Counted from the stretch's first letter, positions 355 through 60,086 are shown. The stretch is 64,000 bases of DNA from Oceanispirochaeta sp. (GCA_963663385.2 CAXXXD010000001.1:128001-192000), one strand, 5' to 3'. The notes: a model not told the origin generated them from the letters alone. A program made the numbers and translations.

Positions 355-1389
355 TCAGGAATTAAAAGCGGCAGATAACCGTGTCCTGTATGTATCCAGA
401 ATCACGGCCAAAATAATAATCACCCCTGTTACGATCTGCCTTGCGAAATCACCCATTCCAATCAGAAGCAGTCCGTTATTCAGAACCCCCATTATGGAAG
501 CGCCCAGAAAGGTTCCTACAAGAGATCCCTTTCCCCCGCTCATACTTGTGCCGCCGATAACAACAGCGGCAATGGCATTCAGCTCAAAACCGACTCCCAG
601 AATGGGACTGGCTATGCTCATACGCAGCATATACATTATCGTCGCAACCCCGACGGTTCCGCCGCAGATGGTATAAGCCATGACTTTATAGAGTTTTACA
701 TTATGGCCGGACAGACGGACAGACTCTTCATTGTTTCCGATGGCAAAGATCATTCGGCCGAAAACTGTCCGTTTAAGAATAACCGACCCCAATACCACCA
801 GAATCAGCGCAATCAGAAAGATGGCCGGAAGAACCCCGAAATAGGTGGTAGTTCCGAAATCATTAAACATTTTCGGAAAATTGAAAATGGTTTTGGAGTG
901 GCTGATCTGAAGGGCCAGACCTCTGGCAATATTCAGCATCCCCAGGGTCACGATAAAAGAGTGGATTTTCCAGGTCTCTGATATAATTCCATTTAAAAAA
1001 CCGATTATCATACCCGAGAGGATACTCAGCATTACGGCCAGAACAATGGCAGCCCCGAATGACAGGGAAGGTGATATCAGGATCTTGCCTGCAATAATGG
1101 AACAGAGAGCCAGTACGGATCCTACAGACAGATCGATTCCTCCCAGCAGTATAACAAATGTCATTCCTACTGCTATAACAGTATTGATACTGATCTGGGT
1201 GAATATATTTGCAACATTTATCAGAGAAAAAAAGCGGGGAGCTCCGATGCTGAATGCGACAACAAGCCCCAGCAGAATAATTCCGATTCCGACTTCCTTC
1301 AGAAAAATATTCAGAAGCGATCGCATGGGGGAATTGTTTTTTCTCCCGGGATCCACGCTGATTTCATTACCTACATTTCCATTACTCAT
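355..1389 (-). CDS. Ribose-type (CUT2) ABC transporter permease, RbsC-like
   Basis: Hydrophobic; motifs GMTFVILLGGIDLSVGS, FGRMIFAIGNNEESVRLSG and ELNAIAAVVIGGTSMSGG. Confidence 0.92.
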   Translation of the reverse strand: MSNGNVGNEISVDPGRKNNSPMRSLLNIFLKEVGIGIILLGLVVAFSIGAPRFFSLINVANIFTQISINTVIAVGMTFVILLGGIDLSVGSVLALCSIIAGKILISPSLSFGAAIVLAVMLSILSGMIIGFLNGIISETWKIHSFIVTLGMLNIARGLALQISHSKTIFNFPKMFNDFGTTTYFGVLPAIFLIALILVVLGSVILKRTVFGRMIFAIGNNEESVRLSGHNVKLYKVMAYTICGGTVGVATIMYMLRMSIASPILGVGFELNAIAAVVIGGTSMSGGKGSLVGTFLGASIMGVLNNGLLLIGMGDFARQIVTGVIIILAVILDTYRTRLSAAFNS

Positions 1390-2890
1390 TCAGATATTCC
1401 TTATAGGAAAGATTCAGTATTGTTTCCGGATCAAACTGATCCCGTTTTACTTCTCCTGTTATTTTGCCGTCTGAAAAAACAAGGATTCTGTGACAGATCC
1501 CCATAAGCTCCGGCAGATCGGAGGAAACCATAATGATGCCTCGCCCCATGGCAGCCAGCTTCCATAACAGCAGGTATATTTCGTATTTCGCCCCCACATC
1601 TATACCACGTGTGGGTTCATCAAAAATAAAAACATCAGAATTCCTGTAAAGCCACTTCCCGATGAGGATCTTCTGCTGATTCCCGCCGGACAGGTAAAGA
1701 GTTTTCTGATCGATACCGGGAGTTTTTATATTCATCTCCCGAATCTGTTTTTCTGTAACTTCTTCCTCCATAGACCGGTTAAGAAAACCTTTGCAGGAGA
1801 CATCTTTCAGATTCGTGATCGTTGTATTATCCACGCAGCTCATTTCAAGAATGAGCCCTTGTGTTTTCCGGTCTTCCGTCAGCAGACACAGCCCGCTGTC
1901 AACGGCATCCTTCGGGCATCTGATATTCAGCTTTTTCCCATCCAGGAAAATCTCGCCGGCTTCTTTTGCATCCGCCCCGAACAGGGCTCTCACTGTTTCC
2001 GTCCGGCCCGACCCCACCAGCCCGGCAATCCCCAGTATTTCGCTTTTTTTAAGCTCAAAGGATTTTGGATGGGGAGAGCCCTTGTAAACAAGGTCCCTTA
2101 CTGTTAGAAGAGGGGCTGAAGGAACTACGGAATCATCAAACGGATACTCCGACTCCATAGTCCTCCCTACCATCATTTTTACAATGGAAGGGATATCGAG
2201 TTCGGAAGCCTCATCGGTGCCTACCACCTGGCCATTCCTGAGAACCGTAACCCTGTCGCCAATCTGAAAAATTTCATTTAAACGATGAGAGATATAGATA
2301 ATTGTCACTCCATCGGCTTTAAGTTTTCTCAGCAGTCCGAACAGGTTATCAATCTCATCGGGCATCAAGGTTGCCGTTGGTTCATCCAGGATAAGGATCC
2401 GGCTTTCTCCCGACAGGGCTTTGGCAATTTCAACAAGCTGCATCTGTGCAACCCCGAGATTCTCAACCAATGTTCCGGGAGACAGTTTTTCCAGACCGAC
2501 CCTTTTCATAATGGCTTCGGCATCTCTATATAAACGGTTGAAATCCACAAGACCGCCTTTTCCCGGCAGTTTTTCAAAAAAGATGTTTTCTGCTACCGAC
2601 AGATAGGGCAGCAGATTAAACTCCTGATATACAACCCGTATACCCTGATTGATTGCTGCAAGCGGATTTTGCGGACAATACGGCTGTCCGGCAAAAATCA
2701 TGTTCCCTCCTGTGGGTGAATAAACACCGCACAGGGTCTTTACCAGTGAGGACTTCCCCGCCCCGTTTTCACCTAAAAGAATATGTACCTCTCCTTCCTT
2801 AACGGCAAGATTTACTTCATCAAGGGCTTTTACACCGGGAAAAGAGAGGGTGATATTATTAAATTCAATTATATTTCCAATGGATCCCAT
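1382..2890 (-). CDS. CUT2 sugar ABC transporter ATP-binding protein with two NBDs, RbsA-like
   Basis: GENGAGKSS Walker A and LILDEPT; second half has GLVGSGRTE, LSGGNQQK and DEPTRGIDVGAK. Confidence 0.95.
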   Translation of the reverse strand: MGSIGNIIEFNNITLSFPGVKALDEVNLAVKEGEVHILLGENGAGKSSLVKTLCGVYSPTGGNMIFAGQPYCPQNPLAAINQGIRVVYQEFNLLPYLSVAENIFFEKLPGKGGLVDFNRLYRDAEAIMKRVGLEKLSPGTLVENLGVAQMQLVEIAKALSGESRILILDEPTATLMPDEIDNLFGLLRKLKADGVTIIYISHRLNEIFQIGDRVTVLRNGQVVGTDEASELDIPSIVKMMVGRTMESEYPFDDSVVPSAPLLTVRDLVYKGSPHPKSFELKKSEILGIAGLVGSGRTETVRALFGADAKEAGEIFLDGKKLNIRCPKDAVDSGLCLLTEDRKTQGLILEMSCVDNTTITNLKDVSCKGFLNRSMEEEVTEKQIREMNIKTPGIDQKTLYLSGGNQQKILIGKWLYRNSDVFIFDEPTRGIDVGAKYEIYLLLWKLAAMGRGIIMVSSDLPELMGICHRILVFSDGKITGEVKRDQFDPETILNLSYKEYLNE

Positions 2891-2952: not shown

Positions 2953-3906
2953 TTATTTAAAGAAATCCTTATCCGCAAGGATGAGAGGAGACTGAACCCA
3001 GCCGAGGTTCTCCCTTTCTCCGGCAATGATTTCAAATCCTGCATTAAAAGCAAGGACTGCCATTTCGGTGCCATCCATATGAACGGTAGCCAGCATTTTG
3101 TCATTAAGAATTAGATCCTTAACAGCCGGGATATTATCAAACCCTACAACCTGAACATCGCTGCGCCCTGCAGCTTCAAGAGCACGGACAACACCGAGAG
3201 CCATTGAGTCGTTGGCACACATAACCCCCTGAACATCCGGGTGTTTGGTCAGCAGATTTGTCATCAGGGTATTGGCTTCTTCCGCTTCCCAGTGTGCTGT
3301 ATTGGAGGCCAGGAGTTCCAGGCCGTGGGTTTCGATGGATTTCATAAATCCGTTTTTTCTCTGTTTGGCATTATCCGCCCCGGGATTCCCTTCGAGAATG
3401 AATACCTTACCGCCTTCTCCGATTGTTTCGCCCAGATAATTACCGACCATTTCGGCTCCGTCTGTATTATCGGGTCCGACGAACAGAAACTCTTCAGGAA
3501 GGCCGGCCGCCTTCAGTGCATCCTTGTCCAGGGTTACATCAAAATTGATAACCGTAACGCCTGCATCGATAGCCCTTTTAACAGGAGCGACCATACCGGC
3601 TGAGTCGGCAGGAGCCAGAACGATCAGATCAACACCCTGAGTAATCAGACTGTCTACAGCATTTACCTGTGTATCAAAGTCCGTTTCGGAATTCATCCCC
3701 ATTGTTATCAGTTTGAAAGAACCGTCCTCTTCAGCATAAGCTTTTGCGCCTTCATCCATAGCCATAAAAAATTCATTAGCCAGTGATTTCATAATCAGAC
3801 CGACGACCGGTCTGTCATCCTCCTTTTCCTGTTCTCCATTGGCAAAAACAGAAACGGGCATCAGAATTGCGAGTCCCACCAGAACAGCCAAAATTTGTTT
3901 CTTCAT
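2953..3906 (-). CDS. Ribose-type sugar ABC substrate-binding protein (RbsB family)
   Basis: Start chosen at MKKQILAV (ATG 3906, AAGGAG upstream). Signal peptide ending VFANG; motifs KSLANEFF, CANDSMALG and VVGFD. Confidence 0.9.
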   Translation of the reverse strand: MKKQILAVLVGLAILMPVSVFANGEQEKEDDRPVVGLIMKSLANEFFMAMDEGAKAYAEEDGSFKLITMGMNSETDFDTQVNAVDSLITQGVDLIVLAPADSAGMVAPVKRAIDAGVTVINFDVTLDKDALKAAGLPEEFLFVGPDNTDGAEMVGNYLGETIGEGGKVFILEGNPGADNAKQRKNGFMKSIETHGLELLASNTAHWEAEEANTLMTNLLTKHPDVQGVMCANDSMALGVVRALEAAGRSDVQVVGFDNIPAVKDLILNDKMLATVHMDGTEMAVLAFNAGFEIIAGERENLGWVQSPLILADKDFFK

Positions 3907-3952: not shown

Positions 3953-3968
3953 TGCAAACCTTATGCCA
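3953..3968 (-). promoter_or_regulatory. Sigma54 (-24/-12) promoter for the ribose-type ABC operon
   Basis: Minus strand reads TGGCATAAGGTTTGCA, i.e. GG-N10-GC exactly, about 45 nt upstream of the SBP start and next to a sigma54 activator gene. Confidence 0.85.
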
Positions 3969-4041
3969 ATACAGAAATATAAGTTCAAAACAGCCTATAA
4001 CAGGGAAAGAGCATAAACCGGAAAAAGATACCGGTCCGCCA

Positions 4042-4091
4042 GATCTGCAATATGGACAAACTGTTCAAAACAGATGTCCAGAATATGAACA
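4042..4091. promoter_or_regulatory. Putative upstream activator sequences for the sigma54 activator
   Basis: TGTCCAGAATATGAACA (4075-4091, TGT-N11-ACA) plus a repeated half-site TGT(T/C)CATATT on the minus strand, about 75-125 bp upstream of the -24 element. Confidence 0.55.
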
Positions 4092-4096
4092 CACTT

Positions 4097-5944
4097 TCAG
4101 GCTACGGGAATCTTCAGCTCGAAGCGGCAACCGTCCTCAAACTGATTATCCAGGGAAATACTGCCGCCGTAACGATTCAGGATATTATAACAGAGAGACA
4201 GTCCCAACCCGTAATTCTGGTTTGTATTTTTTGAAGATTTGAAAGGAAGAAAAACATCCGTCGAATCGTCAAAGGGGACACCGGGTCCGTTGTCTTCAAA
4301 AAGGATAGAGGCATACTCCCGCCCCTCTTCCCGGCTGATGGAAATAGCGATGACACCGCCTTCCGACAGGACTTCAAAAGAGTTTTTAAACAGATTCAGA
4401 ATAACCTGCTTGAATTCGTTTCTGTTAAAAAGGACCTGAACAGGAACCTCCGAATCCTCCCGGATATGGATTTCAATGTGCTTCTGCTTTCCATTGAACC
4501 GGATCAGGTTCATAAGCTCACGGATTTCATCACTTAAAATAATCAGCTCTTTATTCTCTTTCTGGTTATTGGAAAAGGTGATCAGATTCCCTATGACCTG
4601 TGAGATATAATTGATCTGTTCAAAGAGATAATCAAACACCGCCTCCCGTTCATCCGGCTTTACCTTATTCATCCGGAAGCTCTCAAGATAATTGGAAATC
4701 ACTCCCAGGGGATTATTAATCTCATGAGCCACTCCCGCAGACAGGAGTCCCAGGGACGCCAGTTTCTCCGACAGAATGACCTGATCCCGTAACCGCTCCC
4801 GCTCGGTGATATCTTCAATAATAAAGAGGTTTCCAATCAGTAATGCCCCCTCGTAAATGGGGTATAGAACAATATTGGCCATATACATCCCCTTTCCTGT
4901 CTGAAGGGGAATATTGAACATGGAACGGATTTCGCCGGATGCAGCGGTTTCCTCCAGCAGTTCCGCCGGAACAGGGCTTCCCCCGAAAAGACTTTCGACT
5001 GTCAATTCGGTAAGACTGGTATTATCATCCAGGCAGAAGAACTCCCTGGCGCTGGCATTAACCGTTTTAATCCTGTGATCCGTTCCCAGTACAATCAGGC
5101 TGATGGGAAGCTGTTTAAGGATCACTTCGTTGTACTTGAAGAGATTGCCGAATTCGAGGGTGTGATCCTGTTGATCCTCCAGAGAGGAAAACTGTGTATA
5201 GGCCATTTTGATTAGGCTTATTTTATCCAGATCCTTTACATTTTCGGATAAAAGCAGCTTCCCCTTCCGGATAATGCTTACCCGATCGGCAATCATATAG
5301 AGATCGTCAATCCTGTGGGTAATAAAAAGGATGGCACACCCGGATTTTTTCAGGGCATTAAGGGCTTTGATTACCTTTTCCAGACCGTCGGCAGAAAGCT
5401 TTTCCAGGGCTTCATCCAGGATCAGAACCCTGGGAGGAGTGTACAGATTTTTTACAATACTGAGAAAGGCTTTTTCCGACAGGGGCAGATTCGAGACAGA
5501 ATCCCGGGGATTCAGATCAAACCCGTTCTCTTTTAGAAACATCGCGGTGAGGACGTCGACTTTTTTCTGACTGAATCCCCCGAAGCGGGATTGGAACCTT
5601 TTTTTATTGGCAATGAAGAGGTTTTCAGAAACCGTAAGGGCATCATTCAGCCGGATTTTCTGAAAAACCATTCTGATACCGGCATCTATTGTCTCCTTAT
5701 AAGACATTCTGGCATAAGGTTTATTCTGATAAAATACCGCTCCTTCATCGGGAGAGATCAGGTTGGCGACCATTTTGGCCAGGGAGGATTTTCCTGCACC
5801 GTGTTCCCCGACAATGGCATGGATCTCCCCCTCATGAATAGAAAGGTTAATACCGTCCAGAGCCTTGATACTCCCGTAACAGAGGGATACGTCACGCATT
5901 TCAAGGATACACTTCATATCAGTCGCCAAGTCCGGCAATATCAT
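4097..5944 (-). CDS. Fusion protein: ABC ATPase (CUT2 N-half-like) - PAS - HisKA - HATPase histidine kinase, with no TM segment
   Basis: GEHGAGKSS, VFQ (Q-loop), LILDE, ITHR; PAS-like segment (IKTVNASAREFF..IEDITER); H-box GVAHEINNPL, N-box NLFKNS, DNGPG and GLGLS. Alternative start ATG 5917. Confidence 0.9.
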   Translation of the reverse strand: MILPDLATDMKCILEMRDVSLCYGSIKALDGINLSIHEGEIHAIVGEHGAGKSSLAKMVANLISPDEGAVFYQNKPYARMSYKETIDAGIRMVFQKIRLNDALTVSENLFIANKKRFQSRFGGFSQKKVDVLTAMFLKENGFDLNPRDSVSNLPLSEKAFLSIVKNLYTPPRVLILDEALEKLSADGLEKVIKALNALKKSGCAILFITHRIDDLYMIADRVSIIRKGKLLLSENVKDLDKISLIKMAYTQFSSLEDQQDHTLEFGNLFKYNEVILKQLPISLIVLGTDHRIKTVNASAREFFCLDDNTSLTELTVESLFGGSPVPAELLEETAASGEIRSMFNIPLQTGKGMYMANIVLYPIYEGALLIGNLFIIEDITERERLRDQVILSEKLASLGLLSAGVAHEINNPLGVISNYLESFRMNKVKPDEREAVFDYLFEQINYISQVIGNLITFSNNQKENKELIILSDEIRELMNLIRFNGKQKHIEIHIREDSEVPVQVLFNRNEFKQVILNLFKNSFEVLSEGGVIAISISREEGREYASILFEDNGPGVPFDDSTDVFLPFKSSKNTNQNYGLGLSLCYNILNRYGGSISLDNQFEDGCRFELKIPVA

Positions 5945-7235
5945 ACTTTTTCATCCTGCTGTACAGGGTCGTTCGGCTGATATTCAGGGATTCGGCAACC
6001 TTCTTCTTGTTGAAATTTGCCTTTAAGAGCTCCCGCAGGATTGTCTCCTTCTCTGAGCGTTCCAGGGGTGTTTCATCCCGCCCCTCTTCTTCAATCACTT
6101 TTTGAAACTTCGTGGGAAGGCATTCTATTCCGATCGTGCCGTTTGACGATATGGCTGAGGCATAGTTCATTGTGTTCTTCAACTCCCTGATATTGCCGGG
6201 CCAGGAATACCGTAAAAAGAGTTCAAGCACCTCATCCTTCAATACACAGGACGCCGTTCCATTCTCCATGGCGTACTCGTCCATAAAATGTTCAGCCAGA
6301 AGCGGGATATCGGTAATCCTTTTCTTGAGAGGAGGGACTGTCAGGATGGCCGCATTCAAGCGGTAGTAAAGGTCCTCCCGGAATCGCCCGAGAGCAATAA
6401 GATCTTCCAGTTTTTTATTTGTAGCTGAAATGAGTTTCACATCGACCTTGATCAGGTCCTTACCGCCCAGGCGATACAGCTCCCTGTTCTGAAGAACCCG
6501 GAGAACTTTGGCCTGCACTTCCATGGACATATCCCCGATTTCATCCAGAAAGAGGGTCCCGCCGCTGGCTCTTTCAAAAACACCTTTATAACTTGCATGG
6601 GCTCCCGTATAAGCGCCCTTTTCATGGCCGAACAGTTCATTATCCAGAAGGTTGTCGGGAAACGCCGCACAATTCACTTTTATAAAAGGCTTATCGGCCC
6701 GGTTCCCGCTGGAAAAAATGAAATCCGCAAACAGCTCCTTTCCTGTTCCGTTTTCACCATACAGCAGAATGGGAAGATTCCCCGAAGCCAGTTTGAGTAT
6801 TGTTGCCTTCAACTCCTCAACACCCGTATCCCGGCTTACAATCCGGGAATCCGGAAAACAGTCAGGCTGTCCGGCACTGTCGATGACGTTGGCAATTTTC
6901 TCATAGAGGATTTTGTATTTCACAGGCTTAAGAAGATAATCGACCGCTCCATACTTCATGGATTCAACTGCGGTTTCTATAGTGCCGAACCCGGTCAGCA
7001 TAATAACCGGTACGGCAGGATACTCCTTTTTCAGCATTTTCAATACTGACAGACCGGATTCTGATCCCAGTTTCATATCCAGCAGAATCACAGAGATTCC
7101 TCCCTGACTCAGTACGGGAAGAGCATCCGCACTGCTCAGGGCATAGAGGATTTCAAGAGTCTCATCCCCCAGCATACGGGAAAGGCTCATACAGAATTGT
7201 TCATTATCATCAATTATCAGAATACTGTGTTGCAT
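5919..7235 (-). CDS. NtrC/AtoC-family sigma54-dependent response regulator (REC-AAA+-Fis HTH)
   Basis: ILIIDD, LLDMKL, LLKP; GENGTGKE, GAYTGA, FLDEIGDM, FREDLYYRL, WPGNIRELKN; ISRTTLYSRMKKY. Confidence 0.95.
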   Translation of the reverse strand: MQHSILIIDDNEQFCMSLSRMLGDETLEILYALSSADALPVLSQGGISVILLDMKLGSESGLSVLKMLKKEYPAVPVIMLTGFGTIETAVESMKYGAVDYLLKPVKYKILYEKIANVIDSAGQPDCFPDSRIVSRDTGVEELKATILKLASGNLPILLYGENGTGKELFADFIFSSGNRADKPFIKVNCAAFPDNLLDNELFGHEKGAYTGAHASYKGVFERASGGTLFLDEIGDMSMEVQAKVLRVLQNRELYRLGGKDLIKVDVKLISATNKKLEDLIALGRFREDLYYRLNAAILTVPPLKKRITDIPLLAEHFMDEYAMENGTASCVLKDEVLELFLRYSWPGNIRELKNTMNYASAISSNGTIGIECLPTKFQKVIEEEGRDETPLERSEKETILRELLKANFNKKKVAESLNISRTTLYSRMKKYDIAGLGD

Positions 7236-7309: not shown

Positions 7310-8185
7310 CTATTTCAGTTCGGAAATAAAAGGGATGGAATCCATTGCCCCCGGCCTGGATACGGTAATGGAAGAGGCCAGAGTCGCCCTCTCCATAGCC
7401 TCCCGCACGGCCATTCCCTCCAACCGGGACGCCAGAAAGTAACCGAAAAACGTATCTCCGGCTGCCGTTGTATCCACAACAGGAGAGTCTACAATGGGAA
7501 CAAATTCCCGCTGTCCGTCCCTGCCGAACCAGGCACCGGCCTTACCGGCGGTCAGAAGGATGCTGAGTCCGGGGAACATCCCTACCAGACGATCCAGAGT
7601 CTCTTCATAGCTGCCCTCTTGTCCGGCCAGATCCGCCCCTTCAATCTCGTTGACCACAAGGAGGTCCAGTTTATCCAGGGGCCAGGTTTTCACATCTTTC
7701 GTATAGGGAGCCGGATTCAGGCAGACTTTCATCCCCTTTCCGTGAGCTTTTTCAATAATGTAGGAGGTTAAATTCACTTCATTCTGAAGAACCAGATAGT
7801 CTCCCTCTTCAAAATACCCGAGAACTTTATCTATATGAGTCTTGTCGTTATTCCGGTTCCCGCCGCCGAACAGAACGATGGAATTCTGCCCTTCATCGGA
7901 TACCTGAATAATGGCCTGTCCGGTCATCCCGTCATACTGCCTTATCAGATCGGTTCTCACATTGTACTTTTTCAGGAGGTCCAGCAGCCATAAACCGTCG
8001 TGTCCGATTGTACCGGCATGCCAGATTTCTGCTCCCGCTTTTGCCAGAGCCACCGACTGGTTGGCCCCTTTGCCTCCGGCATTGGTACTCACGTCCGAGG
8101 CGGAAATTGTTTCACCGGGCTGTACAATATGGGCGACCTTGTAAACAATATCGATATTCAAGGATCCATAATTTAAGATTTTCAT
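7310..8185 (-). CDS. rbsK: Ribokinase (PfkB family)
   Basis: GSLNID, GGKGANQSVA, LQNE, NPAP, NEIE and DTTAAGDTF. Confidence 0.88.
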   Translation of the reverse strand: MKILNYGSLNIDIVYKVAHIVQPGETISASDVSTNAGGKGANQSVALAKAGAEIWHAGTIGHDGLWLLDLLKKYNVRTDLIRQYDGMTGQAIIQVSDEGQNSIVLFGGGNRNNDKTHIDKVLGYFEEGDYLVLQNEVNLTSYIIEKAHGKGMKVCLNPAPYTKDVKTWPLDKLDLLVVNEIEGADLAGQEGSYEETLDRLVGMFPGLSILLTAGKAGAWFGRDGQREFVPIVDSPVVDTTAAGDTFFGYFLASRLEGMAVREAMERATLASSITVSRPGAMDSIPFISELK

Positions 8186-8223: not shown

Positions 8224-9249
8224 TCAATAAGTGAATTTCCCCAGACTTTCCCTGATTATCAATTCGCTGCCTATAAAGACCTTTTCATAGGGCAGTTTCC
8301 CTTCGGCTGTCATGCGTCTGTTCAGGAGCTGAAAAGCTCTTCTCCCGATCCGGACTTTTGATACTTTAATGGACGCCAGAGGCGGATCGGACATACGGCT
8401 GGAGGGCAGATCGTCAAACCCCACAATGGCCATATCATCAGGCAGAACATATCCTTTTTTTTTCAATGCCTTCATACAGCCGAAGGCGATAATATCGCAC
8501 ACACAGAAAAAGGCCGTCGGCATATCCCGTCCCTCATCCAGACACCTCTCCATATCAAAGGACGCCTTCTCATAGGTGGAATCCACAGAGTAGATCCATT
8601 CATCACGGCAGGACAGGCTGTAATACTTAATCGCTTCCAGAAAACTTTTCTCCCTTAACTTGAAGTTCCGTGTTTCCGCCGAGGATTTCACCAATCCTAT
8701 CTTACGGTGTCCCCTCTTTTTCAGTTCAGCGATAATGGAGTAGACAGCGCCATCATTATCCATATCGACAAAATCAAATGGAAAAACCGGATGACTGGCA
8801 TCGATAAAAACAAGGGGGATTGCCAAAGATTCAAACAGAGGGATATCCGTATCATCCAGTTCTGTAGCCAGTATAACCGCACCTTTGGGACGGGACTCCT
8901 CCAGATCCTTTACTATCTGCACCGGATCAAATCCTGAATAATTCTGGACCTCCAGACTGAACCCGTAATCCCTGGCTTCCTTTTCAAGGCCGTCAATATA
9001 ATCGGAGATAAAGACATTATGATTCCGATTAATGATATGCCCGTGCTTGGCAATCTTTAAAAAACGGATTACACCGCCCGTTTTCCTGCTATTTTCGGAT
9101 ACGGGAATCCGATACCCCATGGCATCTGCTGTTTCAAGCACCAGCTGCCGGGTTTCTTCTCCTATTCCCGGTCTGTTATTGAGTACCAGTGATACGGTTG
9201 AAGGGGAGACTCCTGCCTGTCCGGCCACGTCTCTGATTGTGACACCCAT
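8224..9249 (-). CDS. LacI-family transcriptional regulator
   Basis: HTH VTIRDVAGQAGVSPSTVSLVLN; C-terminal DMAIVGFDD..LIIRES. Start set at ATG 9249 rather than the ORF-track 9303. Confidence 0.92.
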   Translation of the reverse strand: MGVTIRDVAGQAGVSPSTVSLVLNNRPGIGEETRQLVLETADAMGYRIPVSENSRKTGGVIRFLKIAKHGHIINRNHNVFISDYIDGLEKEARDYGFSLEVQNYSGFDPVQIVKDLEESRPKGAVILATELDDTDIPLFESLAIPLVFIDASHPVFPFDFVDMDNDGAVYSIIAELKKRGHRKIGLVKSSAETRNFKLREKSFLEAIKYYSLSCRDEWIYSVDSTYEKASFDMERCLDEGRDMPTAFFCVCDIIAFGCMKALKKKGYVLPDDMAIVGFDDLPSSRMSDPPLASIKVSKVRIGRRAFQLLNRRMTAEGKLPYEKVFIGSELIIRESLGKFTY

Positions 9250-9255
9250 AGAGAG

Positions 9256-9284
9256 ATAGTACCGCCCCAAATAGGATCTGTCAA
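9256..9284 (-). promoter_or_regulatory. Sigma70 promoter of the lacI-rbsK-RR-HK gene run (probably leaderless)
   Basis: Minus strand TTGACA-17 nt-TACTAT, followed 6 nt later by the ATG at 9249. Confidence 0.75.
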
Positions 9285-9303
9285 ATTGTTTTCTAAATTC
9301 CAA

Positions 9304-50671: not shown

Positions 50672-50675
50672 AACT

Positions 50676-52955: not shown

Positions 52956-54776
52956 CTAATCAACAAGGGGAAACGCCATTTTCACAATACACCCCATTTT
53001 ATCTTTTCTGTTATTTATTGAAATTGTCCCCTGATACTTTTTGATAATCCCGTAAACAAGGGACAGACCTAATCCGGTATTTATGCCATTATAGGATTTT
53101 GTTGAGTAGAATGGGGTAAAATAGTCTTTACTGATGTCTATACCCGCTCCAGTATCTTCTATCTGTATTTCCAGAAAGTTCTCATTATTCACAGATATTC
53201 TCTCAATTGTAATGTCAATATCGCCATCTTTCTGAATTGACTCGAAACTGTTCTTGATTATATTCAGCAAAGCCTGCTTGAATTCGTTTTCATTAATATA
53301 AACGACATTGTTCTTATTAAGCTCAGTCAGATTGATGCTGATATTCTTCAGTTTCGCATTAACCCTCAGCAGATCTATCATTTCCTTTACCAGATCATTG
53401 ATGCTGGCATTTTCCGGAGCGACCTTTTCCAGATTGGAAAAATTCTGGAGATTACTTACTATTTTATTAATATATCTAACCTGCTTTGATAATTGATCAA
53501 CAATTTTTATGAGATCAGGTTCATTGTATCTGAATCTGATGTTTGTAAGGTAATTACTGATTATCTCAAGGGGATTATTTATCTCGTGAGCAACCCCGGC
53601 AGAGAGCAGGCCGACAGACGACAATTTCTCCGATAGATGATTGTTCTGCTGCAGGGAATCGTATTCTGTAATATCATAAAATATCAGCATTGATCCGATC
53701 TTGTTATTACCGTCATAAATCGGAGAGTAGTGTACGTTGTAAATGCCTTTCGTATCATTGATATTCAGTGATAAATGATAAATTGTATTTTCATCGTTTT
53801 CTGACAGCTGATCCAGTATTATGTTTTTTGTAGTAATAATTGTTTTGTCAAAGATACACTCTCCCGGTTTCTCAATGTAATCGCCTATATCGATATGAAA
53901 ACTATCAATGAAATATTTGTTAGCGAGCTTCAATATTCCATTATTGTTAAGAATGATTAAATTAACCGGAAGATTTTCGAGTATGGCTTCATTGTATTTT
54001 ATCAAATGATAGAAAGAGTCAGAGGAAGTCTGAATCACAGGCGTTTCCGATAACTGGGTATAAGCCATTCTGATTATCTGCATTCTGCCGATGCTTTGAA
54101 CTGACTCCGTAAGGATATTCGTCCCATATCGTATTATTGATACTCTATCAGATATATCGAATGCCCAGTCGATTTTATGAGTCATGAGAATGATACAGCA
54201 ACCGCCATCTCTTAATTTCCTTAGAATGCTTTTCAACTTGGAATAATACTCAACGGACAACTTATCCAGAGATTCATCCAGAATCAGGACCCTTGGATTA
54301 TTTTTAATTTTTGCCAGTATGGAAACAAGGGCCCGCTCGGATAAAGTCAGGTTTTTAGTCACTTTATCAACATCAAGATCGAAACCGAACCCCTTCAGAT
54401 ATGTATCTGCTGTTTCATGGAGTCTTCTTTTCAGGGAAAGAGAAAAAAACGGTGACGTGTTATCACAGAAAAAGAGATTTTCCGCAACCGTAAAATATGG
54501 ATTCAGCATTAATTGCTGATGAACAAATTGAATACCGGTCTGTTGTGCAACTTTCGTCTTAATAAAGCTATAATCCGTATTATCAACTGAGACGGTACCG
54601 GATTCCGGTCTTACCAATCCGCACAGAATCAGGCCGATACTGGATTTCCCGGCACCGTGTTCCCCGATCAGAGCATGTATGCTGCTGCTTGTAAAACTGA
54701 TATTTATATCATTTAGAGCTCTGACTTTATTAAAATTAAGCCGTACGTTTTTTATATCGACAATTTTATCAGACAT
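52956..54776 (-). CDS. Second ABC ATPase - PAS - HisKA - HATPase fusion histidine kinase, with no TM segment
   Basis: GEHGAGKSS, VHQQ, LILDES, MTHK; PAS-like segment (LKLANKYF..FYDITE); GVAHEINNPL, NIIKNS, DTGAG, PFYSTK and TGLGLS. Confidence 0.9.
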   Translation of the reverse strand: MSDKIVDIKNVRLNFNKVRALNDINISFTSSSIHALIGEHGAGKSSIGLILCGLVRPESGTVSVDNTDYSFIKTKVAQQTGIQFVHQQLMLNPYFTVAENLFFCDNTSPFFSLSLKRRLHETADTYLKGFGFDLDVDKVTKNLTLSERALVSILAKIKNNPRVLILDESLDKLSVEYYSKLKSILRKLRDGGCCIILMTHKIDWAFDISDRVSIIRYGTNILTESVQSIGRMQIIRMAYTQLSETPVIQTSSDSFYHLIKYNEAILENLPVNLIILNNNGILKLANKYFIDSFHIDIGDYIEKPGECIFDKTIITTKNIILDQLSENDENTIYHLSLNINDTKGIYNVHYSPIYDGNNKIGSMLIFYDITEYDSLQQNNHLSEKLSSVGLLSAGVAHEINNPLEIISNYLTNIRFRYNEPDLIKIVDQLSKQVRYINKIVSNLQNFSNLEKVAPENASINDLVKEMIDLLRVNAKLKNISINLTELNKNNVVYINENEFKQALLNIIKNSFESIQKDGDIDITIERISVNNENFLEIQIEDTGAGIDISKDYFTPFYSTKSYNGINTGLGLSLVYGIIKKYQGTISINNRKDKMGCIVKMAFPLVD

Positions 54777-54777
54777 C

Positions 54778-56130
54778 CTACAATATTCCGTATTTTTTCA
54801 ATTTGAGATAAAGAGTATTACGGCTCATCTGTAAATATTTGGCTGTTTCCGATTTGTTATTACCGGTTTTCAATAAAACTTTCCTGATCAGTTCTTTTTC
54901 TCTCTGCTGAACAATACTCAATGAATCATTATCATTTGATCCGCTTATTTCAAAACTCGGGGGCAGATCCTCCATTCTGATTTCATTGTTCTGGGAAATC
55001 GTTGCCGCATATAAAAGAGCATTCTTAAGCTCGCGTATGTTACCAGGCCAGTGATAGTTCATAAATACATGTTTGACCTGATCAGATAGAGATTTCCTGG
55101 GGTTTTTTGCATTGACGCTTATTTCATTTAGCAGAACATCTGTCAGTGCATCGAAATCTTCCCTGCGATTCCTTAAGGGCGGGATTTTCAGCAGACCGCC
55201 GTTCAACCGGTAAAACAGATCTTCCCGGAAAGAGCCTTCCTCAACCATATCCGACAGGTTTTTATTGGTAGATGCTATAAATCTGACATCAATTTTTCTG
55301 ACTTCCTTTCCGCCGATTCGTCTCACTTCCTGATTTTGAATCACTCTCAGGATCTTGGCCTGAAGAGTTGTGGGCATATCTCCAATCTCATCCAGAAGCA
55401 GCGTGCCATTGTTCGCCTGTTCAAACACACCGAGATACTCGGAGGAAGCCCCTGTATAGGCGCCTTTTTCATGCCCGAATAATTCATTGTCCAGAAGACT
55501 CTCCGGAAAGGCTGCACAATTAATTTTTATAAAATTTTCGGAAACCCTATTCGAATTCCTGTAAATGTAATCCGCCAGCAATTCTTTGCCGGTTCCATTT
55601 TCACCTATGATCAGGATTGAGATGTCTGATTCTGCCAGTTTTCTGGCCCGATTTAATAGACTGCTGAACTCTGCATTTTCGCTGCTTAATATATTGCATT
55701 CTTTTTTCAGCCTGTCTTTTAGTTTTTCATTTTCTTTTTTAACTCTTAAATTTTCAGTTGCCGTATCGATTCTTGTACACAGGGTATTGAAATCTATGGG
55801 TTTTTTTACAAAATCGAAAGCTCCCAGCTTCATTGCATTGACTGCCGCTTCAATCGTTGCATACCCGGTTATCATAATCACGGGAATAGGGGGATATTCC
55901 TTTTTTATTTTTTCAAGAGTTTCGACTCCGTTCTCGTTCCCTAATCGTACATCAAGCAAAATAATATTAATATCTTCTTTTTTCAGGACAGAAAAAGCAT
56001 CTTTTGTATTTTTGGCATAAAACAGATAATGCCCGACAAAAGAAAAGTTATCTTTCAGTACCTTATATAACTGTTGATTGTCATCTATGAATAAAATATC
56101 CAAATTCAAGTCTCCTGTAAGCCAAAGCAC
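54778..56130 (-). CDS. NtrC-family sigma54-dependent response regulator (true start uncertain, probably TTG near 56103-56109)
   Basis: FIDDN, LLDVRL, VKKP; GENGTGKE, GAYTGA, LLDEIGDM, FREDLFYRL, WPGNIRELKN; MSRNTLYLKLKKY. Confidence 0.95.
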   Translation of the reverse strand: MLWLTGDLNLDILFIDDNQQLYKVLKDNFSFVGHYLFYAKNTKDAFSVLKKEDINIILLDVRLGNENGVETLEKIKKEYPPIPVIMITGYATIEAAVNAMKLGAFDFVKKPIDFNTLCTRIDTATENLRVKKENEKLKDRLKKECNILSSENAEFSSLLNRARKLAESDISILIIGENGTGKELLADYIYRNSNRVSENFIKINCAAFPESLLDNELFGHEKGAYTGASSEYLGVFEQANNGTLLLDEIGDMPTTLQAKILRVIQNQEVRRIGGKEVRKIDVRFIASTNKNLSDMVEEGSFREDLFYRLNGGLLKIPPLRNRREDFDALTDVLLNEISVNAKNPRKSLSDQVKHVFMNYHWPGNIRELKNALLYAATISQNNEIRMEDLPPSFEISGSNDNDSLSIVQQREKELIRKVLLKTGNNKSETAKYLQMSRNTLYLKLKKYGIL

Positions 56131-56154: not shown

Positions 56155-56182
56155 TGAACAGACACTGTCCTAATTTAGGACA
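56155..56182. promoter_or_regulatory. Putative upstream activator sequence
   Basis: Perfect palindrome TGTCCTAA-T-TTAGGACA (56166-56182) preceded by TGAACA, about 90-105 bp upstream of the -24 element. Confidence 0.65.
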
Positions 56183-56269
56183 ATGATAATACAACAATTA
56201 TAAACCCGCAACGATAAAAATCTGTTTAACTTACTGCTATATTAGCATTAATAAGAATCACCCTGATCC

Positions 56270-56285
56270 TGGTATGGTAATTGCA
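56270..56285 (+). promoter_or_regulatory. Sigma54 (-24/-12) promoter of the BMP-type ABC operon
   Basis: TGGTATGGTAATTGCA, i.e. GG-N10-GC, 43 nt upstream of ATG 56329. Confidence 0.8.
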
Positions 56286-56328: not shown

Positions 56329-57342
56329 ATGAAAAAACTGTTATCCCTATTATTAATCAGCTGTCTGGGATTCGCTTCTGTTTTTGCCTCCGGGGCAAAT
56401 GATGCTCAGGCCGATTCCGGGGAAAAGAGTATCGGTGATCTGAAGATAGTACTGATTCTTCCGGGACCGATTAATGATCAGTCATGGAATGCGACAAACT
56501 ATGCCGGTCTTGTCGCATGTAATGAACAGCTTGGAACGAAAATGGAATATGTTGAGAATGTTCAGGCATCGGATTATGAATCGACATTCAGAAATTACAG
56601 CGAAAGAGGCTATAACCTGATTATGGCAGCGGGAACGCAATTTGATGATGCTGCCAATAAAGTAGCCGCTGACTATTCTGATACAACATTCTGCGTTGTT
56701 AATGGATTCAGAGCAGATTATCCCAATGTATCTCCTATTTTCCCCAAGGAATTCGAAGCGAGCTATATCGCCTCGTTAATTGCGGGAGAGGTGACAGAAA
56801 ACGGAAAGTTTGCCACTATCGGCGGTTTTCCGAATGAGGCGATGGAAAAGCTTCTGGATGTTTATGAAAAAGTTTCCGTCAGTATAGCAAAAGAAAGAGG
56901 GATCTCCGGTTCCAGTGCTAACAGATCGTATGCCAATAGCTGGGATGATATTGCCCTCGGAAAACAGATGGCTGAAACAATGATTGACAATGGTGCAGAT
57001 ACACTGTTTGTATACGCCAATCAGGTAGGGTTAGGAGCTATTCAGGCCGCAAAAGAGAAAGGCAAGAAATTTGTCGGATTTTCCAGTAATCAAAATGAAA
57101 TCGCCCCGGGAACAGTAGTTGCCTCGGTCATTTTTGATTTTCAGATTTTCTACACGTGGGCTGTCGAAAAATACTACAACGGAACTCTGACAGGCGGAAA
57201 AGTACATGAAGCCGGAATCAGGGAAGGGATCTTCAGACCCGTTTACCCGAGCGCATTTTCAGAGGATATAAAATCAAAAGTTGAAGCCGGTATGACAAAG
57301 GCAATCAACGGAGAAGTTGATTTCCAGTCAATGTTCAAGTAA
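56329..57342 (+). CDS. BMP/PnrA-family (nucleoside-type) ABC substrate-binding protein
   Basis: Signal ending VFASG; GPINDQSWN, GYNLI, SWDD..G..MIDNGAD and GLGAIQAA. Confidence 0.9.
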   Translation: MKKLLSLLLISCLGFASVFASGANDAQADSGEKSIGDLKIVLILPGPINDQSWNATNYAGLVACNEQLGTKMEYVENVQASDYESTFRNYSERGYNLIMAAGTQFDDAANKVAADYSDTTFCVVNGFRADYPNVSPIFPKEFEASYIASLIAGEVTENGKFATIGGFPNEAMEKLLDVYEKVSVSIAKERGISGSSANRSYANSWDDIALGKQMAETMIDNGADTLFVYANQVGLGAIQAAKEKGKKFVGFSSNQNEIAPGTVVASVIFDFQIFYTWAVEKYYNGTLTGGKVHEAGIREGIFRPVYPSAFSEDIKSKVEAGMTKAINGEVDFQSMFK

Positions 57343-57351
57343 TGGCAGATA

Positions 57352-57387
57352 ACACAATTCCCTGATATTGATCAGGGTATTGTGTCT
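57352..57387 (+). terminator. Long stem-loop after the BMP gene
   Basis: ACACAATtCCCTGAT-attg-ATCAGGGtATTGTGT followed by CTTTT. Confidence 0.65.
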
Positions 57388-57519
57388 TTTATCGGGTAGA
57401 CGCAAACCACAGGCAGCAGGATTACAAATAATTAATACATTTCATTCTATGTGGAAAAATCAGAGCATAAATTGAAGGATTTGCCGGAAATTATCAGTAA
57501 TTCCTCTAGGAACAGCATT

Positions 57520-59037
57520 ATGAATAAACCTTTTTTTGAACTGAAAAATATATCAAAATATTTTGCCAAAGTAATTGCAAACAAGGATGTTTCCTTATCC
57601 ATTAATCGAGGCGAAGTCCTGGCTCTCCTGGGAGAAAACGGGGCAGGAAAGAGTACATGCATGAAAATCCTTTACGGGCTTTATCAGGCTGACGAAGGAG
57701 AGATTTTCAAAGAAGGTGAAAGGATAATAATCAAATCACCCAAAGATGCAATGCAGCATAGGATTTCCATGATTCAGCAGCATTTCTCTCTCGTTTCAGC
57801 GCATACCGTTACGGAGAATATTATCCTCGGAAATGTAAAAGGGAAAATAAACTGGATTGAGGAAGAAAGAAAGATTCAGAAATTGGCTGATCAGTACGGA
57901 TTTGCTGTTGACTCCCGGAAAAAGATAAAAGATCTGACTGTAGGAGAGCAGCAGAAAGTTGAAATATTAAAGGCATTATACTTGGACGCGAATTTGCTGA
58001 TAATGGATGAGCCCACAGCAGTGTTAACTCCTCAGGAGATAGATATATTAATGGATTTCGTTAAGGGTTACTCCAAACGGGGCAATGCCGTTATTTTCAT
58101 AACCCATAAGCTTAAGGAAGTAATGAGTGTAGCAAACAGAATTATTGTAATGAGATCCGGAATGATACATGGGAATGTATTAAAAGAGCAGACAAATGAA
58201 ATTGAATTATCAAAAATGATGATTGAACATACAATTAAAGAATTAGAGAAAGTCAACGATGATAATGATGTGAAAGATGTCAGCCTTTCCGTCAGGAATT
58301 TAACCGTTAGGCAGAAGAACGAGATCCCCCTGTTAAATGATGTATCTTTTAATATTCACAGGGGTGAAATCTTCGGTATTGCCGGAGTTTCAGGCAATGG
58401 ACAACAGGAACTCTGCATGGCAATCTGCGGAGCCGTAAAACCGGTTGGTGGATCAATCATCCTTGAAAATGAGGACATAACCGACTTTTCGATCAGGAAG
58501 AGAATCTCTATGGGAATGGGATATGTCCCGTCGGACAGACATCGGTATGGAATGCTTATGGACATGAGCCTGTCCGAAAACATCCTGCTTAAAACCAGTT
58601 ATTCCAAAAAGTGGAAAAAGAATGGATTGATTGATAAAAAGAAACTGACCGATACTACAAATCAGATATTAGAGAAATTCAATGTGAAAGCTCCGGGACA
58701 TTACTCCCTGGCAAAAGAATTGTCCGGTGGAAATCAGCAGAAGGTCATTGTCGGCAGAGAAGTCGAATTCTGCGGAGATTTCATTATATTCGATCAGCCT
58801 ACCAGAGGTTTGGATTTAGGCGCAATCAACAATGTCCACTCGGCCATATTAAAAGAGAAGCAGAAAAACAAGGCTGTTATGCTGATCTCGACAGAGTTGT
58901 CTGAAATTTTTGCCTTATCCGACAGGGTTGCTGTTTTCTATAAGGGCGAAATACAGGGTATATATAAAACATCCGAACTCAGCAGTGAAAAAATCGGGTT
59001 GCTTATGGCTGGATATAAGCATCAGGAGGCAATCTAA
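57520..59037 (+). CDS. CUT2 nucleoside-type ABC transporter ATP-binding protein
   Basis: VIANKDV, GENGAGKST, LTVGEQQKVEILKAL, GVSGNGQQEL, LSGGNQQK and QPTRGLD. Confidence 0.93.
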   Translation: MNKPFFELKNISKYFAKVIANKDVSLSINRGEVLALLGENGAGKSTCMKILYGLYQADEGEIFKEGERIIIKSPKDAMQHRISMIQQHFSLVSAHTVTENIILGNVKGKINWIEEERKIQKLADQYGFAVDSRKKIKDLTVGEQQKVEILKALYLDANLLIMDEPTAVLTPQEIDILMDFVKGYSKRGNAVIFITHKLKEVMSVANRIIVMRSGMIHGNVLKEQTNEIELSKMMIEHTIKELEKVNDDNDVKDVSLSVRNLTVRQKNEIPLLNDVSFNIHRGEIFGIAGVSGNGQQELCMAICGAVKPVGGSIILENEDITDFSIRKRISMGMGYVPSDRHRYGMLMDMSLSENILLKTSYSKKWKKNGLIDKKKLTDTTNQILEKFNVKAPGHYSLAKELSGGNQQKVIVGREVEFCGDFIIFDQPTRGLDLGAINNVHSAILKEKQKNKAVMLISTELSEIFALSDRVAVFYKGEIQGIYKTSELSSEKIGLLMAGYKHQEAI

Positions 59038-60086
59038 TGGATAAAAAAAACCGGGATATTCTTATTACCAGCTTCCTGGCAATTCTGTTGGGACTGATTC
59101 TCAGCGGTATTATGGTTCTTTTTCTGAAAAAGAATCCCATATATGTTTTCAGCATTCTCTTCTCATCCATGTTTCGGGATGGCTATACAATCGGAGAAAT
59201 CTTTGTAAAGGCGACACCCCTGATTTTTACGGCGCTGGCTTTTGCTTTTACGTTTAAAGCGAATCTTTTCAATATTGGAGCCCAGGGGCAATTCTATATG
59301 GGATCGATAACGGCTGTGACTGTATCGTTATTTATACCGTCTCCCCTTGCCATTCCACTGGCTATTTTCTTCTCTTTTCTGATCAGCGGGATATGGGGAG
59401 GCTTTATTGGATTCTTTAAAGCCAGATTCAAAGCGAATGAATTTCTCATCAGTATGATGAGCACTTATGTCGCCCTGAATTTTATGAACTATTTACTGAG
59501 AACAGTCCTGATGGAAAGCAAAGGCGAATACCCTCAAACCGATTCGCTGGTAAAAAGTACCTGGCTATTTAAAATTGTTCCGCATACAAGACTTCACTTC
59601 GGTTTTGTTCTGGCGATTCTTGCTGCAGTAATTGTCTGGCTCATACTCTACAGAACGACTTTGGGATTCAGGATCAGAGCTGTGGGACAAAACCAGGAAG
59701 CTGCAAGGATGAGCGGCGTCAATCCTGAAAGGATTTATATTTTCACCTTTTTTGTCAGCGGAGGACTGGCGGGTCTTGCCGGAGTCACAGAGGTCAATGG
59801 GGTTCAGCATATGCTGCTTCAGGGTTTTAACCCTTCAATTGGAGCCCTTGGCATAGGAATCGCTATTTTAGCCAATGCCAATCCCATAGGGATCATCTTC
59901 GCTTCAATCCTGTTCGGAGCCTTGCATGTAGGAGGTACTATCATGGGCCAGCTGTCAGGAGTGCCTTCCAGTATTATAAATTTAATGGAAGGGTTTGTTA
60001 TGGTATTTGTCATCATCTCTTATTTTGTGCGGAAGAGATGGGAGTTGAACAGAGAAAAAAAACTTCTTAAGGAAGGGATCTACTGA
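59037..60086 (+). CDS. Nucleoside-type ABC permease 1
   Basis: ATPLIFTAL, FNIGAQGQ and GFRIRAVGQNQEAARMSG. Confidence 0.92.
   Translation: MDKKNRDILITSFLAILLGLILSGIMVLFLKKNPIYVFSILFSSMFRDGYTIGEIFVKATPLIFTALAFAFTFKANLFNIGAQGQFYMGSITAVTVSLFIPSPLAIPLAIFFSFLISGIWGGFIGFFKARFKANEFLISMMSTYVALNFMNYLLRTVLMESKGEYPQTDSLVKSTWLFKIVPHTRLHFGFVLAILAAVIVWLILYRTTLGFRIRAVGQNQEAARMSGVNPERIYIFTFFVSGGLAGLAGVTEVNGVQHMLLQGFNPSIGALGIGIAILANANPIGIIFASILFGALHVGGTIMGQLSGVPSSIINLMEGFVMVFVIISYFVRKRWELNREKKLLKEGIY

Follow-up and report, generated by a model that had tools for sequence, protein, structure and literature searches.

A 64,000-nucleotide stretch of DNA from Oceanispirochaeta sp. (GCA_963663385.2 CAXXXD010000001.1:128001-192000, hereafter the window) encodes at 4097-5944, on the minus strand, a histidine kinase whose N-terminal module resembles the first nucleotide-binding domain (NBD) of CUT2-type ABC sugar-importer ATPases. 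We find good support for one regulatory circuit made up of this kinase, the NtrC-type regulator encoded directly ahead of it, a sigma-54 promoter and the adjoining CUT2 importer. The best-supported mechanism, which we rate at a probability of roughly 0.55, is that the NBD would act as an input module by docking on the importer permease; we favor it because a complex prediction, a co-variation specific to the NBD and a peak of that co-variation at the predicted interface point the same way.

An importer-type NBD at the head of a soluble kinase

The kinase (copy 1 of two in the window) is divided as follows.

4097..5944, minus strand: NBD-PAS-HisKA-HATPase_c histidine kinase, copy 1; 615 residues, soluble
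5198..5914, minus strand: ABC nucleotide-binding domain of the CUT2 N-terminal type (residues 11-249; AlphaFold2 predicted local distance difference test score, pLDDT, ~90)
5129..5197, minus strand: low-confidence linker after the conserved LIKMAYTQ motif (residues 250-272; pLDDT <50, disordered in the model)
4811..5128, minus strand: PAS domain with an EDIT motif at its end (residues 273-378; PAS fold in the AlphaFold2 model, pLDDT ~85)
4106..4807, minus strand: kinase core, with dimerization and histidine-phosphotransfer (DHp) helices 380-459 (H407 in HEINNPL) and the catalytic ATP-binding domain 466-613

The open frame of 615 codons is free of stops, and translation may start at M10, just beyond the regulator stop. 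Pfam places ABC_tran at residues 29-180 (E 6.2e-23), with HisKA at 399-461 (3.1e-10) and HATPase_c at 509-614 (6.8e-18), both above their cut-offs, and PAS_4 at 276-384 slightly below its own (E 1.2e-4, 22.7 bits against 23.1). The NCBIfam matches to residues 13-251 are confined to the N-terminal half of CUT2 ATPases (YtfR 1e-45, AlsA, AraG, MglA, XylG, RbsA 2e-41), those to residues 270-614 are AtoS-like, and BLASTP aligns the N-terminal domain with the first NBD of the RbsA-like neighbor (1382-2890) at 33% identity over 236 residues (E 3e-42). Kyte–Doolittle hydropathy reveals no transmembrane segment in any of the five paralogous kinases of this genome (the permease used as control gave 100 windows >1.6). 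An earlier reading of the DNA by itself (the original prediction) had proposed a 615-residue protein with an RbsA-type NBD, a PAS-like domain and a HisKA/HATPase core lacking membrane segments, a description with which Pfam, NCBIfam, BLASTP and hydropathy all agree.

An AlphaFold2 model of the copy-1 kinase, built on an alignment of 53 relatives, has a mean pLDDT of 80. Foldseek relates its NBD half to LptB (TMt 0.85-0.88), FtsE (0.82) and MetN, TMt values for these running from 0.6 to 0.88, and the other half to PAS-kinases (YF1-type chimeras, ThkA); this search returned no solved chain spanning both halves. The kinase-core residues H407, N517, N521, D551, G553, G555 and G579-G581, which make up the H-box and the N, G1 and G2 boxes, are invariant in the 53 members, and on these domains and boxes the protein classes as a HisKA-type histidine kinase, with autophosphorylation predicted.

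The NBD is the best-conserved part of the kinase, and the 53-member alignment indicates strong purifying selection on both halves. Copy 1 retains the A-loop aromatic (Y23), Walker A GEHGAGKS (46-53), Q95, D177/E178 and H210, and is altered at the signature (LPLSEK, 153-158) and D-loop (DEALEKL for DEPTATL). The motifs quoted in the original prediction (GEHGAGKSS, the Q-loop, Walker B LILDE, H-loop ITHR and the changed LPLSEKAF and DEALEKL) can all be read in the protein as they were written. Invariant throughout the 53 members are G46, E47, H48, G49, G51 and K52 of Walker A, Q95 of the Q-loop, I175, L176 and D177 of Walker B and the catalytic E178, with H210 of the H-loop conserved in at least 90%.

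When 46 kinase NBDs are set beside 51 first NBDs of CUT2 ATPases, these positions fall into two classes. The cis-acting ATP site is common to both sets, including the A-loop aromatic (kinase Y23 aligning with a Phe of the CUT2 domains), albeit with Asn48 of CUT2 replaced by His48 in the kinases. The elements that act in trans across an NBD dimer are family-specific in the kinases, with LxLS(D/E)R at the signature (Gln159 being lost) and DEALEKLS in place of DEPT/D-loop. The kinase NBD therefore matches a CUT2 N-terminal NBD in Walker A, A-loop, Q-loop, Walker B, H-loop and fold, and departs from it at the signature (LS.G.QQ) and D-loop. Since the cis-acting site is kept, the domain very probably still binds ATP-Mg.

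A sigma-54 circuit linked to CUT2 importers

All genes of the copy-1 neighborhood lie on the minus strand, in the order LacI-type regulator, ribokinase-family gene, NtrC-type regulator, kinase, a 140-nt spacer, binding protein, ATPase and permease, with the regulator gene (5919-7235) overlapping the kinase frame by 26 nt.

5919..7235, minus strand: NtrC-type response regulator, 438 residues; REC (6.6e-23), Sigma54_activat (3e-64) and HTH_8 (2.4e-10), GAYTGA read directly
3983..4080, minus strand: candidate enhancer sites, comprising an 11-nt direct repeat without mismatches (3983-3993 and 4063-4073) plus a TGGACA..TGTCCA dyad at ~4049-4080; the function is putative
3953..3968, minus strand: sigma-54 -24/-12 element TGGCATAAGGTTTGCA, 46 nt ahead of the binding-protein ATG (3906)
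2953..3906, minus strand: periplasmic sugar-binding protein (Peripla_BP_4), RbsB/AlsB-like but under the equivalog cut-offs; ATG at 3906 after AAGGAG
1382..2890, minus strand: CUT2 tandem-NBD ATPase, RbsA/AraG/XylG-like, 502 residues (Pfam, NCBIfam)
355..1389, minus strand: CUT2 permease, BPD_transp_2, 344 residues; cytoplasmic loop 206-230 (G218, N220, G228) is the predicted seat of the kinase NBD
7310..8185, minus strand: ribokinase-family PfkB kinase, under the equivalog cut-off
8224..9303, minus strand: LacI-family regulator in the same gene run

This is the arrangement that the original prediction had described (a kinase gene following an NtrC-type activator, upstream of a sigma-54-type promoter and a ribose-type ABC operon, with a ribokinase-family gene in the run), and our annotation confirms it. 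No equivalog-level NCBIfam name was obtained for the binding protein, sugar kinase or importer, such that "ribose-type" serves as a family label only. We regard TGGCATAAGGTTTGCA as the putative sigma-54 promoter of the transporter operon; matches to the -24/-12 pattern are not commoner than chance across the window (18 found, 22.6 expected), and it is therefore the position of this element that counts. The genome encodes rpoN (sigma-54; PF04552 match, 190 bits), and the regulators of both copies carry GAYTGA, a variant of GAFTGA.

We assessed the same context across 36 systems, namely the five paralogs of this genome, 15 systems in 14 loci from a contig scan (L001-L013, L068) and 16 loci from a survey of the phylum (L103-L118). 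The contig scan kept 80 loci, from which the 14 full-length ones were used; the 66 others hold the kinase half only, because the HEINNPL pattern also picks up ordinary kinases, and were dropped from all context counts. A regulator is adjacent in 35/35 assessable systems and an importer in 33/34. In the 15 systems of the contig scan, the sigma-54 regulator lies directly upstream in 14/14 with upstream DNA and a CUT2 importer alongside in 13/13 with at least 5 kb of flank; the corresponding counts for the phylum survey are 16/16 and 15/16. The constant linkage that had been predicted thus stands in full for the sigma-54 activator and fails once for the importer, at L109. Adjacency in every assessable system points to the regulator as the phosphotransfer partner of the kinase.

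A -24/-12 element (at most two mismatches, GG and GC fixed) precedes the binding-protein or first transporter gene in 16 of the 18 systems examined, against 0.018 expected per region; among these 18, none was found for the fifth copy of this genome or for L008.

At L109 (7662-16130), which has no importer within 8 kb, the genes after the regulator–kinase pair encode a LacI-type protein, an FGGY kinase, a class II aldolase-family protein and L-arabinose isomerase; this system may control catabolism, its importer being encoded elsewhere. The importer linked to the L111 system (5703-6500) has a single-NBD ATPase (P0250, 265 residues) with canonical Walker A and LSGGQ, and two separate chains of one NBD type can therefore serve such a permease. 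L068 (2950-9800) contains two regulator–kinase systems in back-to-back arrangement, each flanked on its outer side by a CUT2 importer of its own.

The Oceanispirochaeta genome (5.31 Mb, 98% complete) encodes five such kinases and 38 CUT2 tandem ATPases, only five of which neighbor such a kinase. Each of the five paralogs is encoded immediately after an NtrC-type regulator and next to a CUT2 operon that has its own full ATPase. The second copy also lies within the window, in a divergent arrangement.

52956..54776, minus strand: copy 2, NBD-PAS-HisKA-HATPase_c kinase, 606 residues, 40% identical to copy 1 over the full length
54778..56130, minus strand: NtrC-type response regulator of copy 2, with GAYTGA
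56163..56185, plus strand: palindrome TGTCCTAA-T-TTAGGACA (TGTCC/GGACA) ahead of the divergent operon
56270..56285, plus strand: -24/-12 element TGGTATGGTAATTGCA ahead of the divergent operon
56329..61000, plus strand: divergent Bmp/PnrA-type ABC importer (binding protein, tandem-NBD ATPase, two BPD_transp_2 permeases)

In both copies, TGTCC/GGACA dyads occur ~85-110 nt upstream of the -24/-12 element (4049-4080; 56163-56185), and we consider them candidate binding sites for the two activators, which are paralogous. A gene immediately downstream of copy 2, at 50595-52814 on the plus strand, encodes a 739-residue protein with an N-terminal caspase (Peptidase_C14) domain.

The surroundings of the other paralogs differ. 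A KDPG/KHG aldolase, a PfkB kinase and an IclR regulator adjoin the third system (L081, 5012-7733 and 14669-15877), in which the gene for a YhfX-like protein of pyridoxal-phosphate (PLP) fold sits between the importer permease and ATPase genes; these neighbors hint at a sugar-acid or amino-sugar substrate. The importer operon of the fourth paralog (L082, 3975-5171) includes, between the binding-protein and ATPase genes, a 398-residue open reading frame with no Pfam or NCBIfam match, and the fifth importer (L083, 1376-3823) is flanked by two URO-D-family paralogs.

In phylogenies rooted on the CUT2 second NBDs, the kinase NBDs group as a single clade within the first NBDs of CUT2 ATPases (support 95 in a FastTree phylogeny of 46 rows), a clade recovered by IQ-TREE in quick mode (29 rows, SH-aLRT 95), and the first NBDs of the adjacent importers are dispersed over several clades. 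With the kinase NBDs forming a single clade, the fusion is old and of single origin, and on the trees the kinase–regulator module has re-associated with different importer subtypes. We also considered that each kinase NBD could be a recent copy of its neighbor's first NBD, and rejected this on both trees and on similarity: among the 38 ATPases of the genome, the five neighbors rank 1, 32, 22, 15 and 13.

The original prediction had called for a survey of the ABC_tran+PAS+HisKA+HATPase_c architecture, which turns out to define a large, conserved family. Of 7999 proteins scored in a search of 5.8 billion, 674 match at E<=1e-30, and the top 120 of these all contain PF00005, PF00512 and PF02518 within 597-641 residues. 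Their annotation is generic ("ATP-binding cassette domain-containing protein", "histidine kinase"), and the matches derive from Oceanispirochaeta, metagenome-assembled genomes of Spirochaetia, candidate division KSB3 (Moduliflexus, Vecturithrix), Desulfomarina and others. When a profile was run against 1.84 billion representatives at 50% identity, the best 150 all scored E<=6e-106; 127 of these measure 585-646 residues, 22 are fragments of 333-520 and one has 851. The family therefore comprises at least 127 full-length clusters at 50% identity, which record titles assign to Spirochaetota, KSB3/Moduliflexus-type bacteria, Planctomycetota and others. The short pieces that were scanned (381, 411 and 520 residues) lack part of the C-terminal kinase half, and the 851-residue protein (P0349), with an NBD, two HisKA-matching stretches and one HATPase_c, may hold an internal duplication or insertion. 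No tandem-NBD kinase occurs among the matches listed, although no search was aimed at longer or shorter forms.

Distribution in Spirochaetota, the phylum of the window, is patchy (13 of 401 genomes and 10 of 153 genera at E<=1e-60; three candidates were scored per genome, which makes copy numbers lower bounds). In one related genome with three copies (L117, L118), two copies appear to be defective: ~87 residues are missing from the start of one kinase, and the other is cut by a TGA, the neighboring ATPase being split into two frames.

Docking on the permease and competing explanations

Prediction of a complex between two permeases and NBD residues 8-255 gave scores of 0.60, 0.61 and 0.61, as compared to 0.01, 0.05 and 0.00 for three controls; the prediction passes the mark of the method, which is reached by 116/157 solved complexes and 2/215 mismatched pairs, a calibration that is rough here (own alignments, three chains). 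The runs share at least 84% of contacts, with partner pLDDT of at least 80. They bring permease residues 206-230 and 286-287, including the invariant loop residues G218, N220 and G228, against the Q-loop region and the first helices of the helical subdomain of the NBD (62, 82-86, 92-94, 98-125), and the predicted seat is the canonical coupling-helix groove. This modeled placement of the NBD on the coupling loop is in line with the docking that had been proposed from the DNA (0.61 against 0.05 for the best control). Searching by sequence turned up no solved relative of this permease.

We then compared divergence between partners in 25 systems with complete parts. Left out were L001, whose regulator is split; L002, L009 and L113, which are short; L011, which has two importers; the first L068 system, whose permease lies beyond the contig; the broken L117 and L118; L115, a near-duplicate of L114; and L109 and L111. 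Correlations between distance matrices amount to 0.71-0.81 within the set of NBD, PAS, kinase core and regulator, and to 0.57-0.71 for ATPase and permease. Against the transporter parts, PAS, kinase core and regulator reach -0.14 to 0.11 and the NBD 0.09 to 0.29. Once the kinase core is accounted for, the NBD tracks the permease (r=0.32) and the ATPase (0.31-0.36), values matched by none of 1000-2000 permutations, whereas the PAS domain (-0.05) and regulator (0.01) do not track the permease, nor the PAS domain the ATPase (-0.02). The NBD–permease partial correlation persists when a BLOSUM distance is used, and stands at 0.24 with a cubic fit, 0.26 once the set is thinned to 20 systems and 0.26-0.39 in a jackknife. 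The binding protein, available in 23 systems, is likewise tracked by the NBD (0.38) and not by the PAS domain (0.07).

Within the NBD, the 23 positions of the predicted interface are more variable than the remainder (mean pairwise identity 0.23 vs 0.36) and yield the highest partial correlation with the coupling loop of the permease (0.39). Among 500 subsets of other NBD positions matched for variability (mean 0.18, standard deviation 0.08), one reaches this value, and no PAS subset does (maximum 0.27).

The mechanism that we favor would run as follows. A sigma-54-dependent two-component system would switch on the adjacent CUT2 sugar importer, using as its input module an NBD that goes back, by a single ancient event, to the first NBD of a CUT2 ATPase. 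The kinase dimer would offer two NBDs to the coupling loops of the permease dimer, where the ATPase of the transporter normally sits. Engagement of the permease by sugar-loaded binding protein would change the closure of the ATP-loaded NBDs, and this movement would pass via the LIKMAYTQ linker to the PAS domain and DHp helices, altering autophosphorylation at H407; the phosphorylated NtrC-type regulator would in turn activate the sigma-54 promoter ahead of the transporter operon. We infer the NBD–permease contact and the direction of the signal, and the same holds for whether ATP is hydrolyzed or merely bound. We do not expect the kinase to power transport. More speculatively, and with odds we place somewhat short of even, the kinase dimer in the ATPase's seat could constitute a dedicated non-transporting receptor (binding protein, permease and kinase) with the NBDs as mechanical transducer, in effect a "transceptor" built of ABC-importer parts, in which paralogs would be matched to importers via the variable coupling-loop interface.

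Several observations weigh against docking. Every linked importer retains a complete ATPase of its own, and the kinase would thus need to vie with it for the permease or draw on a distinct permease pool; of the original proposal that the NBD could dock in place of RbsA, the docking is modeled and suggested by co-variation of the NBD with the permease, and the replacement has to be read as such competition or pooling. The signature and D-loop, which close an NBD sandwich in trans, are both altered, making canonical ATP-driven closure of two kinase NBDs doubtful. The kinase NBDs of this genome are not especially like their own neighbors' first NBDs (the ranks given above), and L109 has no neighboring importer. 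The docking model may mirror the general likeness of any ABC NBD to solved ABC importers. Co-variation in sliding windows peaks at residues 12-51 rather than in the Q-loop windows, and the positive control is weak: the homologous positions of the true ATPase reach 0.23 against the coupling loop, a value attained by 65 of 300 matched subsets (0.15 +/- 0.09), and the sensitivity of the interface test is therefore not established. L005 is mismatched, in that its coupling loop is like that of c5 and its NBD interface like that of L004. Finally, Mantel-type permutation tests on related sequences overstate significance, for which reason the internal contrasts (NBD against PAS domain, interface against matched subsets) are the fairer evidence.

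Nucleotide sensing and pairing with RbsA, the two further options named in the original prediction, keep a small probability. Of the other explanations, we consider first, as unlikely, that the NBD never sits on a transporter and is instead an energy or nucleotide sensor, binding ATP/ADP, dimerizing with ATP and gating a costly importer by energy charge, with sugar specificity supplied elsewhere (e.g., by a LacI-type repressor). The invariant or nearly invariant cis-acting ATP-site residues would suit this role, as would the solubility of the kinase, the ATPase possessed by each importer, the LacI-type regulator in the same gene run and the lack of an adjacent importer at L109. Such a sensor would have no need of five paralogs, each beside a different importer. 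Nor would one expect its NBD, but not its PAS domain or regulator, to follow permease and binding protein, still less with a peak at the predicted coupling-loop interface; moreover, the motifs that have changed are precisely the trans-acting ones on which dimerization would depend.

PAS domains in cytoplasmic kinases commonly bind small ligands, and the PAS domain, well folded in the model and joined to an AtoS-like kinase half, could be the true sensor of an intracellular sugar or metabolite, leaving the NBD as a structural or dimerizing relic that only modulates output. We think this improbable, given that PAS divergence does not follow permease, ATPase or binding protein (the values above), that its conserved residues lie chiefly in the N-cap and the EDIT output motif, and that an NBD which is the best-conserved part of the protein and keeps its catalytic residues does not resemble a relic.

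A third explanation has the kinase NBD pair with the transporter ATPase, NBD to NBD for instance, and so read turnover or flux directly. The kinase NBD is of the N type, whose partner in CUT2 ATPases is a C-type NBD with canonical LSGGNQQK; co-variation of the NBD with the ATPase is as strong as with the permease, and the single-NBD ATPase of L111 could form a mixed dimer. The two NBDs of a tandem ATPase belong to one chain and are already paired, however, the kinase NBD bears no special likeness to that of its neighbor, and co-variation peaks against the permease loop; we accordingly give this pairing little credence. That the gene is an assembly artefact or a functionless, decaying fusion, as the two broken copies at L117/L118 might suggest, is exceedingly improbable in view of the open frame, the five paralogs in the genome and the spread of conserved full-length clusters over several phyla with both halves under purifying selection.

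Comparison with known sensory systems

The original prediction knew of no characterized example, and our literature search likewise found no description of a kinase with an ABC NBD (ABC_tran fused to HisKA) within its coverage, which excludes subscription journals; all three Pfam names appear in PMC2788356 and PMC2853384, only as domain counts. Were docking on the permease to hold, these systems would offer a natural experiment in the mechanical transmission of NBD closure and in how NBD–permease specificity is coded in a cell with 38 similar importers, and would provide synthetic biology with a ready-made sugar-responsive sigma-54 switch.

A close functional analogy is to the Bce modules of Firmicutes (BceAB with BceS/BceR), in which a kinase lacking its own sensor senses via its ABC transporter within one sensory complex and controls that transporter's expression (10.1101/2020.02.28.969956; PMC10314905), as we propose here. 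BceS, however, sits in the membrane and contacts BceB through transmembrane helices, and the module pairs an FtsX-type peptide-resistance pump with an OmpR-type regulator and is not known to have a fused transporter domain; our system combines a soluble, NBD-carrying kinase with a binding-protein-dependent sugar importer and a sigma-54 regulator. With a BPD_transp_2 permease, a binding protein and a kinase devoid of membrane segments, it falls outside the Bce type, and the likeness is one of function only.

CbrA and CrbS (PMC5715377) also have a transporter-derived module covalently fused as input to a PAS-DHp-catalytic-domain kinase, controlling use of the transported substrate class. There, a whole SLC5 membrane transporter is fused, in contrast to the soluble ABC motor domain described here, which would need a separately encoded permease to dock on; the kinase has no STAC or SLC5 Pfam match, and its N-terminus is ABC_tran. 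In PstSCAB-PhoU-PhoR and DctA-DcuS (PMC9239213, PMC8307970), the kinase similarly depends on a transporter to perceive its substrate. Those kinases differ from ours in being membrane proteins and in making contact via PhoU and a PAS domain or via a DctA helix, and they are not known to carry an ATPase domain.

By sequence, the closest relatives of residues 13-251 are the first NBDs of CUT2 ATPases (RbsA, AraG, XylG, MglA, AlsA, YtfR), with which they share the A-loop aromatic, Walker A GE(N/H)GAGKS, the Q-loop, the Walker B D-E pair, the H-loop and a non-canonical signature. The kinase differs from these ATPases in having a single NBD with no C-terminal partner, His48, DEALEKLS and a lost signature Gln, in the PAS and kinase domains that follow and in its separate clade. 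A comparable architecture occurs in MalK and MetN, where the NBD is followed by a C-terminal regulatory domain lying below the dimer that couples NBD opening and closing to regulation, and Foldseek aligns MetN over ~400 columns of the kinase model. Unlike the kinase, MalK and MetN are true transporter subunits, which regulate transport or a separate activator and have no fused kinase.

If correct, docking of the NBD on the permease would represent a third solution, beside co-sensing by separate transporters (Bce, Pst/PhoU/PhoR, DctA/DcuS) and whole-transporter fusions (CbrA, CrbS), in which a soluble kinase gains access to a periplasmic signal via the coupling helices of a permease.

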